A stretch of DNA of 64,000 bases from an uncultured Methanobrevibacter sp. Its GTDB lineage: Archaea > Methanobacteriota > Methanobacteria > Methanobacteriales > Methanobacteriaceae. The stretch covers positions 2,666 to 66,665 of the forward strand of contig NZ_CACXTS010000018.1 in the NCBI RefSeq assembly GCF_902770715.1. The letters are read 5' to 3'. The notes under the pieces are model-generated. The model worked only from the letters and a program-made list of their open reading frames with translations. It ran no database searches and was not told the DNA's origin. Shown here one piece after another: positions 35,498 to 39,457 of this stretch (position 1 is the stretch's first letter; the number at the start of each line of letters is the position of its first letter). The position numbers and the translations under genes are program-made.

Positions 35498-35635
35498 ATA
35501 TCACGTGTTATATTCACTATATAACAATAGTTATTTTTTATATATAAATGTTTTGGTATACCTAAAAAAAGAACAGTAAAATTAATTATAACTTATGTTA
35601 TACCAACATAACATATGTTATTTTTAGTATTTAAA
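35498..35635 (-). promoter_or_regulatory. Two tandem promoters, each followed by two ATAAC-N4-GTTAT operators
   Basis: TATA TTTAAATA (35628-35635) with operators 35608-35621 and 35588-35601; TATA TTTATATA (35541-35548) with operators 35521-35534 and 35498-35511; DtxR-like box 35551-35566. Confidence 0.7.
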
Positions 35636-35699
35636 GATTGTCATTGAAAAATTTATTAAATTCAAAAAAAAATTAAAAAAAAAGAGGAGAAAAATCTCC

Positions 35700-37046
35700 T
35701 TAATCGTTTATCTCATAACCTAAGGACTGTAGGTTTTCACGAATTTTATCAGATAAATCATATTGTTTGTTAGCTCTTAGTTCAGATCTAACATCAGAAA
35801 TTAAATCAAGTAAATCATCAGACCCGGCATTTACCTCTTCAACTTCAAAGCTAACACCAAAAATATGTGCCGCATCATCTAAGAATGCTTTAATAGCTAC
35901 TTTATCTTCATCAGAATATGAATCTAAATCATTTTTAGTATCATTGATTAATCCAAAGATTGCCGCAATAGCCTTTGGAGTATTAAAGTCATCATCCATA
36001 CTGTCAAAGAATTCTTTTTTATGAGGAGCCAACACATCACTTTCATTAATTTCCTCACCCACTTCAACATCCAAAAGCTCATAATATTTTCTAATCCTAT
36101 CCAAACTTTTTTCAGATTGGTGGAGTGAATCTTTGGAAAAGTCAATTGGGCTTCTATAGTGAGTTGAAAGTACAAAGAATCTGAATGTTTCGGCAGCATA
36201 ATCTTTTAATAATTCACGGATTGTAATGAAGTTATTTAAGGATTTTGACATTTTTTCTCCATTAACATTTAAAAATCCAGTGTGCAACCAGAATTTTACC
36301 ATTGGAGCTTTGCCTGAAACAGCCTCCATCTGTGTAATTTCCGCTTCGTGGTGCGGGAAAATCAAATCGAGTCCGCCACCGTGAGCATCATATTGAGGTC
36401 CGAAGTAGTATTCGGTAATTGCAGTATCCTCAATGTGCCATCCAGGTCTTCCGTCACCCCATGGGGATGGCCAAGTTGGTTCATCCACACCTTCACGTTT
36501 TTTCCAGAGCGCAAAGTCCTGTGGATTCTTTTTAGTGGTCTCTGCAATGTCTCTGTGAGATTCCAATTCTTCAACATTTCTGTTGGATAATTTACCGAAT
36601 TCAGGGAATTTATCTATTTCAAAATAGACTCCGTCTTCGGTTTCATAAGCGAAACCCTTATCAATTAATCTTTGAATTTGGTCTAAGATTTCATCAACGT
36701 GATCGGTTGCTCTTGCAAATAAATTAACGCCGTTTACATTTAATTTATTCATGTCTTCAATGTATCTTTTTTCAAACTTGCGAGCTAATTCATTTGCTGG
36801 AATTCCGCTTTCTTTTGATCTGTTGATAATCTTGTCATCAATATCAGTGATATTTTGAATGTAGAATACAGCATATCCTTTGTATTCCAAATATCTTTTT
36901 ATAGTATCGAAAGAAATGTATGTTCTTCCATGTCCAATATGAGCATCATCATAAACTGTTGGACCGCAAACAAATAAGTTAACTCTATTTTTATTAATAG
37001 TCACAAAATTCTCTTTACTGCGAGTTAAAGTTGAATAGACGTCCAT
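35700..37046 (-). CDS. cysS: Cysteinyl-tRNA synthetase (class I)
   Basis: VCGPTVYDDAHIGHGR, DFALWK, GRPGWHIE, GGGLDLIFPHHE, KMSKS; likely start ATG 37046 with GAGGT RBS. Confidence 0.97.
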   Translation of the reverse strand: MDVYSTLTRSKENFVTINKNRVNLFVCGPTVYDDAHIGHGRTYISFDTIKRYLEYKGYAVFYIQNITDIDDKIINRSKESGIPANELARKFEKRYIEDMNKLNVNGVNLFARATDHVDEILDQIQRLIDKGFAYETEDGVYFEIDKFPEFGKLSNRNVEELESHRDIAETTKKNPQDFALWKKREGVDEPTWPSPWGDGRPGWHIEDTAITEYYFGPQYDAHGGGLDLIFPHHEAEITQMEAVSGKAPMVKFWLHTGFLNVNGEKMSKSLNNFITIRELLKDYAAETFRFFVLSTHYRSPIDFSKDSLHQSEKSLDRIRKYYELLDVEVGEEINESDVLAPHKKEFFDSMDDDFNTPKAIAAIFGLINDTKNDLDSYSDEDKVAIKAFLDDAAHIFGVSFEVEEVNAGSDDLLDLISDVRSELRANKQYDLSDKIRENLQSLGYEIND

Positions 37047-37078
37047 AAAAAATAACCTCAAAAAATAGTAATTAAAAA

Positions 37079-37149
37079 AGGCAAGTGAGGGACTTGAACC
37101 CCCGTATTATGGTCTGCAGCCACACACCTAGCCACTCGGTAAACTTGCC
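37079..37149 (-). tRNA. tRNA-Cys (GCA), intronless, no encoded CCA
   Basis: GGCAAGT/ACTTGCC acceptor stem, U73, D-stem ACC/GGT, anticodon arm TGTGG-CTGCAGA-CCATA, T-arm GGGGG-TTCAAGT-CCCTC; followed by a T tract. Confidence 0.93.
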
Positions 37150-37221
37150 ACTTAAAATTAAAGTATAATAAAATATTGGTAATTGATAGTTTAAATAGTT
37201 TACTATTATTTCCAATATTTT

Positions 37222-37596
37222 TTAATTTACTTCAGAACCTAAACAAGATTGACAATCCTCACCAAGGTCAGATTTGTCAATATTAAGTTGTTTCAAAACG
37301 TCGGATATCTCAACATGATGGCAAATATTGCAGGTTCTTGGAATTAATTGCGCTTTTGTGGCTTCGCCAACAGATAACTCACGAGCAAATTCATGAATCA
37401 TTCCACGAACATCATCGTTAAGTTTAATTCCACTACCACGTTTGTCAGTAATGTACTGTGATACAGCAGGTTGAGTTATATCCATAAGTTCAGAAACATC
37501 TTTTTGTTTCATTCCTAAGTTCAAAAGCTCTTTAGCTAATTCTGACCTAATAGCCGGTATAACATACCAAACTACAATTTCGCAAGGTGGTTTCAT
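37222..37596 (-). CDS. HTH transcriptional regulator (COG2522-like) with Cys-rich C-terminus
   Basis: PPCE...PAIRSELA...MKQKDVSELMDITQPAVSQY HTH; CNICHH and CQSC. Confidence 0.82.
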   Translation of the reverse strand: MKPPCEIVVWYVIPAIRSELAKELLNLGMKQKDVSELMDITQPAVSQYITDKRGSGIKLNDDVRGMIHEFARELSVGEATKAQLIPRTCNICHHVEISDVLKQLNIDKSDLGEDCQSCLGSEVN

Positions 37597-37607
37597 TTTT
37601 CATCACT

Positions 37608-38312
37608 TCATTTGAATAAATCTTCTAACTCTTCTTGTTCATCTCTAATATCTCTCGCAAAACAAATTTCATTCTTATCATATAAAATTTGGATGTGCTT
37701 ATCAGTTTCTTCGAGATGTTGTTCAAGGGTTCTAATTGCTTTTGCAACAGGGTCTGGAAGTTTATTGTGATCTAAATCAACTTTATCGTGAGATACGCCT
37801 TTACATTTAACAATACGTCCAGGAACACCAACACATGTTGATTCAGGAGGAACATCCTTTAAAACAACTGCACCGGTCCCAATTTTAGAATATTCACCGA
37901 TTGTAATATTACCCATCACTTTAGCACCGGCACCTATGATAACTCCTCTTTCAATAGTAGGGTGTCTTTTAGTTTTTTCTGTACTTGTTCCACCAAGAAT
38001 TACTCCTTGATAAATCAATACATCATCACCAACAATTGCAGTTTCTCCAACAACAACTCCCATACCATGGTCAATAAATACTCGTTTACCGAATGTTGCA
38101 CCAGGGTGGATCTCAATGCCTGTAATAAATCTAGCTAAATTAGAGTTCATACGTGCAAGCAGCTTTAAAGAATGATTCCACAACCAATGGCTAACTCTAT
38201 GCATCAATAATCCATAAAATCCAGGGTAGCACAAAAAAATCTCCAGAGTGCTACGGGCCGCAGGATCTTTATCTTTAATAGCTTGGATTTCAGCCCTTAA
38301 ATCATTGAACAT
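37608..38312 (-). CDS. cysE: Serine O-acetyltransferase
   Basis: DPAARS, GIEIHPGA, FIDHGMGVVVGETA, KRHPT hexapeptide repeats. Confidence 0.96.
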   Translation of the reverse strand: MFNDLRAEIQAIKDKDPAARSTLEIFLCYPGFYGLLMHRVSHWLWNHSLKLLARMNSNLARFITGIEIHPGATFGKRVFIDHGMGVVVGETAIVGDDVLIYQGVILGGTSTEKTKRHPTIERGVIIGAGAKVMGNITIGEYSKIGTGAVVLKDVPPESTCVGVPGRIVKCKGVSHDKVDLDHNKLPDPVAKAIRTLEQHLEETDKHIQILYDKNEICFARDIRDEQEELEDLFK

Positions 38313-38347
38313 CGATAAACCTCAATTATTTTATACTTTAATTTTAT

Positions 38348-38361
38348 ATAACATATGGTAT
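38348..38361. promoter_or_regulatory. ATAAC-N4-GTTAT-like operator upstream of cysE
   Basis: ATAACATATGGTAT (1 mismatch) abutting a TATATATA box. Confidence 0.6.
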
Positions 38362-38373
38362 ATATACTTATTC

Positions 38374-39321
38374 TTATTCAAATAACCAATCTACGGAGAG
38401 ATATCTTTCACCGTTATCTGGTAAAATTGCTATAATTCTTTTACCTTTATTTTCTTCTTTTTTAGCCAAATCTAAAGCAGCCCAAGTTGCAGCTCCAGAT
38501 GAAATACCTGAAAAGATACCTTCTTTTTTAGCAAGTGCAATTAAGGTGTTTCCAGCATCCTCATTTGCAACTGGAATAATCTCATCAATTACGCTTTCAT
38601 CATATATTGATGGGACAAAACCTGCACCGATTCCTTGAATTTTATGAGGTCCTTTTTCACCTTTACCTAATGTCTGTGAGTCTTTAGGTTCCACTGCTAC
38701 AATTTTAACACCTGGAACTTCTTCTTTTAAGACTTTTCCAATTCCGGTTATTGTTCCACCAGTACCTACACCGCCGATAACAATGTCAACTTTTCCTTCA
38801 GTATCTCTTAATATTTCCTGAGCAGTAGTTTCCTCATGGATTTTTACATTAGCAGGATTGTCAAATTGACCCAATATAATGGAATCAGGAGTCTCTTCAT
38901 TTAATTCATTTGCTTTTGCAATAGCTCCACCCATTCCTTCTGAACCAGGAGTCAATACAATTTCAGCACCTAAAACACTTAAGAATTTCCTTCTTTCAAT
39001 GGACATGGTTTCAGGCATGGTCAATATTAACTTGTAACCTTTAGCAGCTGCCGCAAATGCAAGGCCAATACCTGTGTTTCCACTTGTCGGTTCGATGATT
39101 GTAGCACCTGGTTTGAGCAAGCCCTTCTCTTCCGCATCTTCAATCATTGCAACAGCAACACGGTCTTTTACACTTCCAGTTGGGTTGAATGATTCAATTT
39201 TTACATCAACTTCCGCTTCTAATCCTTCTGTTAGATTATTTAATCTTACAATTGGAGTGTTTCCAATAGCATCAGTAATACTATCATATACTCCTCTTTT
39301 TAATTCTGGAACTTTCGCCAT
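38374..39321 (-). CDS. cysK: Cysteine synthase A
   Basis: IGNTP, FNPTGSVKDR, EPTSGNTG, GTGGT, HKIQGIGAG, DNGERYLS. Confidence 0.97.
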   Translation of the reverse strand: MAKVPELKRGVYDSITDAIGNTPIVRLNNLTEGLEAEVDVKIESFNPTGSVKDRVAVAMIEDAEEKGLLKPGATIIEPTSGNTGIGLAFAAAAKGYKLILTMPETMSIERRKFLSVLGAEIVLTPGSEGMGGAIAKANELNEETPDSIILGQFDNPANVKIHEETTAQEILRDTEGKVDIVIGGVGTGGTITGIGKVLKEEVPGVKIVAVEPKDSQTLGKGEKGPHKIQGIGAGFVPSIYDESVIDEIIPVANEDAGNTLIALAKKEGIFSGISSGAATWAALDLAKKEENKGKRIIAILPDNGERYLSVDWLFE

Positions 39322-39387
39322 ATTTTTATCTCCTTAACTAATTTATTTATTTTATATTTTAATATTAAAAAAGCTTATTTTAAAGTT

Positions 39388-39457
39388 ATAACACATGTTA
39401 TTATAACTATTGTTATATAACATTGTTTTAGTTTATAAATGTTTTGGTATGACTAAA
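39388..39457 (-). promoter_or_regulatory. cysK promoter with ATAAC-N4-GTTAT operators and DtxR-like box
   Basis: Operators 39388-39401 and 39403-39416 (partial third from 39417); TATA 39432-39439; box 39442-39457. Confidence 0.7.

Follow-up and report, generated by a model that had tools for sequence, protein, structure and literature searches.

The window analysed here, a 64,000-nucleotide (nt) stretch of an assembly of a rumen Methanobrevibacter (C18:2666-66665; the assembly comprises 2.12 Mb in 86 contigs, with 34% G+C), carries genes of cysteine synthesis, homocysteine synthesis and iron-sulfur (Fe-S) assembly, the promoters of which contain a repeated 14-base palindrome, ATAAC-N4-GTTAT, as well as a gene of a small cysteine-rich protein that very probably binds it. 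All of these genes are encoded on the minus strand. O-acetylserine sulfhydrylase CysK (38374..39321; 315 amino acids (aa); PALP domain, 3.2e-74) is followed by serine acetyltransferase CysE (37608..38312; 234 aa; Hexapep, 2e-12, and SATase_N) and, 11 nt downstream of cysE, by a 124-aa protein with a helix-turn-helix (HTH) domain (37222..37596; HTH_3, 4.6e-5), the candidate regulator, the gene of which is probably co-transcribed with cysE. Further downstream are located metY, encoding O-acetylhomoserine sulfhydrylase and truncated at its 5' end (34288..35487; Cys_Met_Meta_PP, 1.4e-122, from profile position 27), an iscS/nifS-type cysteine desulfurase gene (33015..34223; 402 aa; Aminotran_5, 3.4e-86), a gene of the IscU/NifU-N scaffold (32641..33021; 126 aa; NifU_N, 3e-48) and dfx, the last gene of this presumed operon, which encodes a desulfoferrodoxin-type superoxide reductase (32220..32585; 121 aa; Desulfoferrodox, 8.8e-18). 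The gene order aroA-nth-cysK-cysE-regulator-cysS-(0.3-2.6 kb)-metY-iscS-iscU-dfx is kept in 20 genomes of the same genus, and the synteny of dfx in 16 of the congeners.

Four promoters with TATA boxes were found in the window: one ahead of cysK, one ahead of cysE and the regulator, and two in tandem ahead of metY-iscS-iscU-dfx. The palindromes at these promoters span about -23 to +22, counted from a transcription start assumed 23 nt past the TATA box, and on the coding (minus) strand each of them follows or abuts a TATA-like box. A preliminary description of this DNA had listed seven palindromes, placed between a TATA box and the gene at four promoters, and every one of them was found at its coordinate: five are exact (35521, 35588, 35608, 39388 and 39403) and two carry one mismatch (35498, ATATCACGTGTTAT, and 38348, ATAACATATGGTAT). 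The placement was also borne out, with the cysE site abutting or overlapping its TATA-like box, while one half-site at the cysK promoter had been left off the list. The extended consensus of the motif is aTAACwATwGTTAt.

The cysK promoter consists of a TATA box (TTTATAAA, 39432..39439, minus strand), kept as ccaaaacaTTTATAAA in 20 congeners, the overlooked half-site (CAATGTTAT, 39417..39425, minus strand, about -16 to -8), found in nearly all of 21 cysK promoters, and, directly downstream of it, two exact operators: A (ATAACTATTGTTAT, 39403..39416, about -7 to +7) and B (ATAACACATGTTAT, 39388..39401, about +9 to +22). The whole module, TATA - caatGTTAT - ATAACAATAGTTAT - ATAACnnnnGTTAT, is kept across the 21 cysK promoters. 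On the coding strand operator A reads ATAACAATAGTTAT in about 17 of 21 genomes, the others differing in the spacer and one of them having a one-base change in an arm. The arms of operator B are invariant in 21 congeners, and its 4-nt spacer occurs in at least 12 forms; fixed arms around a variable spacer are characteristic of selection on the arms and not of a general conservation of the sequence. Both metY promoter modules are kept in 16 genomes of the genus. The distal one has a TATA box (TTTAAATA, 35628..35635, minus strand; TTTATATA in relatives) and two exact operators with 20 base pairs (bp) from centre to centre, ATAACATATGTTAT (35608..35621, about -16 to -3), kept in 13 of 16 congeners, and ATAACTTATGTTAT (35588..35601, about +5 to +18). 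In the proximal one, a TATA box (TTTATATA, 35541..35548, minus strand) that is invariant in 16 congeners is followed by the exact operator ATAACAATAGTTAT (35521..35534, about -16 to -3), read as ATAACTATTGTTAT on the coding strand in 15 of the 16, and by ATATCACGTGTTAT (35498..35511, about +8 to +21), the single mismatch of which is likewise kept in congeners. The cysE operator (ATACCATATGTTAT on the coding strand, 38348..38361, one mismatch) abuts or overlaps the TATA-like sequence TATATATA at about 38360-38367. It belongs to the block tATATACyATATGTTATata, which is kept in the genus, with strict conservation limited to the GTTAT arm and the other arm common to the TATA box; no other of the seven sites is as weak. 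Thus, conservation in the orthologous promoters of relatives, which had been named as a check on the motif, is found for the cysK, metY and cysE modules in 16-21 genomes of the same genus.

The repeated palindrome is real. Five exact copies in the window compare with 0.12 ± 0.38 expected, and none of 100 dinucleotide-preserving shuffles reached five. The motif had not been noticed in other intergenic regions of the window, and indeed the only further matches at up to one mismatch (15428 and 16052) lie inside or at the end of the coding region of amtB and are chance hits. When the whole genome was scanned against its AT-rich background, 14 exact copies were obtained, 13 of them within the 12.6% of the genome that is free of long open reading frames (ORFs). 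Controls matched to the motif in composition and spacing (everted arms, direct arms, spacers of N2, N3, N5 or N6, and seven other AT-rich palindromes) gave 0-4 non-coding matches each, being 3- to 13-fold rarer than the motif in non-coding DNA, and therefore AT-richness is not the explanation.

The candidate regulator is a single-copy gene in this genome, and its product is the sole transcription factor found inside the regulon. Its match to HTH_3 (PF01381) is marginal (23.8 bits against a cut-off of 23, E-value 4.6e-5, residues 21-53); a Pfam and NCBIfam scan returned this domain alone, with no Rrf2 winged-helix domain (PF02082), and a sequence-profile search of PDB matched only generic lambda-repressor-like and XRE HTH proteins. 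The AlphaFold2 model of the protein is confident and all-helical, with seven helices (pLDDT 90), and a Foldseek search of PDB with this model gave no significant hit, the best ones (DdrO and other XRE proteins) having E-values of at least 0.88 and a TM-score of about 0.26. The protein is unrelated to AmzR, a recently described family of archaeal transcription factors. Five cysteines, Cys5, Cys89-x2-Cys92 and Cys115-x2-Cys118, are invariant among close relatives; the centre that they ligate would most likely be an Fe-S cluster or some other site responsive to sulfur or redox state. Sequence searches place the protein in a family of 1176 representative clusters at E-values up to 1e-3 (249 at up to 1e-10). 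Its members are about 120 aa long and have an N-terminal PCE..VWY.LPA.R motif, a recognition region AAVSQY..KRG and a C-terminal CxxC...CxxC, all of which the regulator fits, the full consensus of the family being PCE..VWY.LPA.R...AAVSQY..KRG...CxIC...(LCxxH)...CxxC.

The strongest point of evidence for a link between this protein and the palindrome comes from distant homologues, in the genomes of which the motif appears to accompany the start of the regulator gene itself. Among 77 such loci (33-55% identity, 40-54% G+C, retrieved with one distant member of the family), 40 carry TAAC-N4-GTTA (TAACAATTGTTA) in the 120 nt that precede the start of the regulator gene, with the consensus aTAACAATTGTTAw, the background rate in the same loci being 0.004 per 120 nt. 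The family has members in Halobacteriota, Methanosarcinales/ANME, Methanocellales, Altiarchaeota, Bathyarchaeia, Asgard archaea, DPANN and Bipolaricaulota, and the neighbours at the distant loci include YcaO (12), ThiI (7), class-V aminotransferases of the cysteine desulfurase type (6) and ThiS (3), as well as CysE, IscU and CysS. Since the motif accompanies the regulator gene in changing neighbourhoods and across phyla, it is best explained as the autoregulatory operator of the regulator. In the window, it is most probably the cysteine-rich protein encoded at 37222-37596 that binds the palindrome.

The distribution of genes and sites within the family Methanobacteriaceae points in the same direction. 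Out of 71 genomes, 67 are concordant, of which 56 have both the regulator and cysK and 11 have neither; the four discordant ones comprise one with cysK only (G055, whose contig stops short of the operon promoter, so that it does not serve as a control) and three with the regulator only, one of these regulators being a pseudogene. Neither gene occurs in 16 genomes of other families. Genomes with the regulator contain 9-25 exact sites and those without it 2-12. Among the sites that were listed, the spacers in genomes with the regulator are mostly of the form NATN (9 of 14 in G000, 15 of 21 in G111, at least 12 of 18 in G069), and in the seven regulator-less genomes with listed sites they look random, with 0-1 NATN in each. 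In the one genus compared, G111, which has the regulator, contains 21 sites, and G080 and G096, which do not have it, contain 4 and 7, respectively.

In Methanobacterium and other Methanobacteriaceae, the cysK-cysE-regulator cluster persists with a regulator that is just 57-61% identical. These genomes have exact sites about 55 bp upstream of cysK, often two abutting ones; four genomes of another genus have cysK unlinked from the regulator, yet the exact sites upstream of it are kept; and Methanosphaera-like genomes have the cysK sites 110-200 nt upstream of the ATG. The complete genome G111, which represents a different genus, contains a 45-kb island with 15 sites ahead of sulfur genes. The targets there include cysK-cysE-regulator, metY-metX-iscS-iscU, a cystathionine-synthase-like gene with ThiF, ThiI, Thi4 and PdxS, genes of DsrE-like proteins, cysteine desulfurase and aminotransferase, an HdrA/FlpD-like protein, ThiS-like and PNPOx-like genes, and a NifX-like gene with nitrogenase-like D/K/H genes beside an ABC transporter (L214, G111:C1:572500-577600). 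The nitrogenase-like genes could serve organosulfur salvage, in the manner of methylthio-alkane reductase, under sulfur control.

The preliminary description had drawn a regulon of four promoters. All four are indeed found in the window, but the regulon is not restricted to them: nine exact sites lie outside, all intergenic and most of them just upstream of sulfur-related genes. Exact sites precede a LarE-like PP-loop sulfur transferase with a ThiF/MoeB-like E1 protein, an EgtC-like class-II amidotransferase with a 468-aa ligase-like protein (C2:68937-71124), a MoaE-like protein, a NifB-like radical-SAM protein, pdxS-pdxT, and an MFS transporter followed by metK (C33:867-3408; the site is directly before the transporter). 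Across the genus, the site is present in 17 of 18 orthologues of the LarE-like operon, in about 21 of 22 orthologues of the EgtC-like amidotransferase operon, where the usual layout is TATA-site-6 nt-site, in 23 of 29 orthologues of the MoaE-like gene and in 21 of 28 of the NifB-like gene.

On these grounds it is considered likely that ATAAC-N4-GTTAT is the operator of the 124-aa HTH protein, acting as a repressor of genes of cysteine synthesis, Fe-S assembly and sulfur transfer. A dimer of the regulator would bind each 14-bp palindrome; the sites are single or form tandem pairs 14-23 bp apart, and at the tandem ones the protein could cooperatively cover the promoter between the TATA box and about +22. 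The bound protein would block the recruitment of TBP/TFB or RNA polymerase, so that transcription would be repressed. It is from this position that archaeal repressors such as MDR1, LrpA, Phr and NrpR are known to block that recruitment. The targets would be cysK, the regulator's own cysE-regulator operon and, from two tandem promoters, metY-iscS-iscU-dfx; elsewhere in the genome, they would include the LarE-like/ThiF-like pair, the EgtC-like amidotransferase with its ligase and the MoaE-like and NifB-like proteins, and in some species pdxST and the MFS transporter. The cysteine-ligated centre would relieve the repression when the supply of sulfur, cysteine or Fe-S clusters is low. The parts of this model differ in strength. 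The predicted binding of the regulator to the palindrome is strongly supported by the comparison of genomes; the direction of control, repression, is suggested by site position alone; and the sensed signal, sulfur, cysteine or Fe-S supply, is proposed by analogy with IscR, SufR and CymR. The earlier proposal of a single repressor-type operator for cysteine synthesis, homocysteine synthesis and Fe-S assembly gains support from the footprinting of congeners, the genome-wide regulon of sulfur genes and the Methanobacterium-type genomes.

Several observations weigh against this interpretation. As the regulator co-occurs with cysK, the phyletic pattern would by itself be explained equally well by another gene of the island. 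The Methanobrevibacter protein is devoid of the central Cys/His motif (LCxxH) that most members of the family have. Autoregulation in this genus depends on a weak site, since the cysE palindrome overlaps the TATA box and only one of its arms is strictly kept, and the transcription start positions throughout are deduced from TATA spacing alone. Three exact sites have no obvious link to sulfur (one at a 2291-aa ORF on C11, two in non-coding DNA on C22 and C28), and pdxS carries the site in just 4 of 13 orthologues, so that pdxST was rejected as a core member of the regulon.

The operator may be a true one and the cysteine-rich protein an activator or a dual regulator, activating, for example, when sulfur is scarce. 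The MoaE-like promoter and part of the NifB-like promoters, with the site at or upstream of a TATA-like sequence, would fit such a role, as would the cysK sites of Methanosphaera-like genomes at 110-200 nt from the ATG. However, the sites in the window and at most of the conserved targets occupy the stretch between the TATA box and about +22, in many cases as tandem pairs, which is the position of a repressor, and those of the distant homologues lie within 1-45 nt of the regulator's own start, as fits negative autoregulation; activation is thus regarded as unlikely. It is still less probable that another transcription factor binds the palindrome and that the HTH protein is a mere passenger of the cysK-cysE island. 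The co-occurrence of the regulator and cysK, which confounds the phyletic pattern, leaves room for this explanation, but 40 of 77 distant homologues have the motif directly upstream of the regulator in differing neighbourhoods (YcaO, ThiI, cysteine desulfurase) and in loci of 40-54% G+C.

That the repeats are non-regulatory, being either chance AT-rich palindromes or duplicated pieces of promoters spread by recombination, is hardly credible. The genome has only 34% G+C, and 35 bp of the metY promoter are identical to non-coding DNA on C22, both of which speak for such an origin. In non-coding DNA, however, the matched controls are outnumbered 3- to 13-fold by the motif. Its arms are retained where spacers and flanks have diverged, and it is met again at orthologous sulfur promoters of other genera and phyla.

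The proposed repressor resembles IscR (an Rrf2 protein of Proteobacteria with a [2Fe-2S] cluster), CymR of the cysteine regulon of Bacillus and SufR of cyanobacteria, which are likewise small autoregulated DNA-binding proteins that bear cysteines and adjoin their target genes. The likeness extends to palindromic operators at promoters of cysteine desulfurase, scaffold and cysteine metabolism genes and to a presumed feedback from Fe-S or cysteine status. The fold, however, is unrelated, with neither an Rrf2 nor a DeoR domain and a marginal HTH_3 match alone; the cysteine pattern (Cys5 and CxxC...CxxC) and the operator sequence differ, and the promoters are archaeal ones of the TATA/TFB type. 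In the Rrf2 family the cluster is held by three closely spaced cysteines and one more ligand; the present regulator has Cys5, Cys89-x2-Cys92 and Cys115-x2-Cys118. With the Cro/C1 repressors (XRE, HTH_3) of phage 434 and P22 (c2), the protein shares the Pfam HTH domain and, presumably, autoregulation, and the operators are alike in being 14-bp palindromes, the conserved 4-5 bp arms of which stand 4 bp apart; many are arranged in tandem and overlap the promoter. Unlike Cro/C1, the regulator has an additional N-terminal helix with a conserved cysteine and, at its C-terminus, a helical domain that bears two CxxC pairs, and it would serve a chromosomal metabolic regulon on archaeal transcription machinery, not a phage switch.

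SurR of Thermococcales is also archaeal, linked to sulfur status and furnished with a CxxC motif and a short GTT/AAC palindrome. SurR, the CxxC of which is N-terminal and works as a redox switch, is an ArsR-like protein with two winged helices and governs genes of hydrogenases and sulfur reduction. The order of the arms is opposite (GTT-N3-AAC for SurR, AAC-N4-GTT with a 4-nt spacer here), and no similarity of SurR to the regulator was detected by Pfam, PDB-profile or fold searches.

Sulfur and Fe-S clusters are needed by methanogens in very large amounts. In the literature searched (full text, for motif strings, sulfur and cysteine regulation in methanogens, regulons of Methanobacteriales and ycaO-linked regulators), no description of the circuit was found, nor of any methanogen transcription factor for cysteine or sulfur assimilation, in agreement with the earlier statement that a cysteine regulon is not known to have been described in Methanobacteriales. 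The regulator-operator pair proposed here would be a concrete candidate for sulfur control in methanogens. In addition, the list of targets groups several poorly understood genes with sulfur metabolism: those of the LarE-like, ThiF-like, EgtC-like (with its ligase), MoaE-like and NifB-like proteins and, in Methanobacterium, the nitrogenase-like ones.

A broader reading, for and against which the balance seems even, is that the family constitutes a pan-archaeal sensor of sulfur status, present in a few bacteria too, with one near-unchanged operator (TAACAATTGTTA) from Methanobacteriaceae to ANME, Bathyarchaeia, DPANN and Asgard archaea. Its cysteines might read Fe-S clusters, sulfide or persulfide, and the family would be a master switch, the archaeal counterpart of IscR and CymR on an unrelated scaffold. 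If this is true, it governs cysteine synthesis, Fe-S assembly, the synthesis of thio-cofactors and thio-nucleosides and nitrogenase-like organosulfur salvage. With a DNA site shared across phyla, it becomes possible to study by experiment how anaerobic archaea, among them the methane producers of the rumen and gut, control sulfur trafficking.

Some other features of the regulon deserve mention. The EgtC-like/ligase-like operon has one of the best-conserved double operators. The 468-aa ligase-like protein matched nothing in Pfam or NCBIfam, and the pair may make or turn over a thiol of the gamma-glutamyl-cysteine type. A leader of 100-280 nt separates the operator from the start of the LarE-like gene in most congeners (L062-L077). 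Within it there is a conserved hairpin rich in G+C (gagcatcatttgatgctctt), perhaps an attenuator, a small RNA or a terminator belonging to an upstream unit. The metK gene on C33 is of the bacterial type (TIGR01034, 1.5e-158), which is unusual for an archaeon.

Together with cysK, cysE and the regulator, the genes of tRNA-Cys(GCA) (37079..37149, minus strand), located between the regulator and cysS, and of cysteinyl-tRNA synthetase, cysS (35700..37061, minus strand), form one cysteine-themed cluster. The tRNA gene has no operator, and none was seen at its syntenic neighbour cysS: no site with up to two mismatches was found in 37060-37235 or in 10 congeners, and operator control of tRNA-Cys or cysS in this genus was therefore dropped. 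The TATA region of tRNA-Cys is overlapped by a different conserved inverted repeat, AATAG-N4-CTATT.

The place of metY among the regulated genes, assumed in the preliminary description, holds as regards its operators and promoters but not as regards an intact gene, since metY is 5'-truncated in this assembly. It is without the start codon, the ribosome-binding site and the first ~34 codons, being ~126 bp short in comparison with 16 congeners, all of which have MTNKNYGLATLGVRAGQxPDPATGAQAVPIYQT upstream of TSYVFKD. The deletion junction lies at a TTCA microhomology near 35479-35485, with a TGA directly upstream of the remaining frame; the metY promoter and the downstream iscS-iscU-dfx are intact. 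The missing 126 bp occur nowhere else in the assembly, and the junction is absent from the genome and metagenome contigs searched, by which the deletion is neither confirmed nor refuted; the gene is either a pseudogene or the product of an assembly error. A metY paralogue on C8 is 58% identical and was rejected as a member of the regulon, there being no site ahead of it.

A second input of the DtxR type had also been proposed for the metY promoter. The palindrome in question is real, but it belongs to a separate regulon: TTAGG-N4-CCTAA has 15 exact copies in the genome (on C22, C35, C26, C4, C6, C8, C12 and C41), all non-coding, often paired and usually flanking TATA boxes, and the metY copy (TTTGGTATACCTAA, 35552..35565), just upstream of the TFB recognition element and TATA box of the proximal promoter, carries one mismatch. 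The exact form precedes, among others, feoB (C22:13351), cbiM (C6:29963) and an ABC ATPase, as would be expected for metal uptake under DtxR/MDR1-type repressors, the likeness to which concerns this second motif only, and this regulon is plausibly metal-responsive. The core of the proximal metY promoter, including the operator and the TATA box, is identical over 35 bp (ATAACAATAGTTATTTTTTATATATAAATGTTTTG) to a stretch of non-coding DNA on C22. In that region (C22:11900-12100), two TTAGG-N4-CCTAA boxes come after the copy, as does a second TATA box, with no ORF of 100 aa or more downstream, and the product may be a small protein or RNA.

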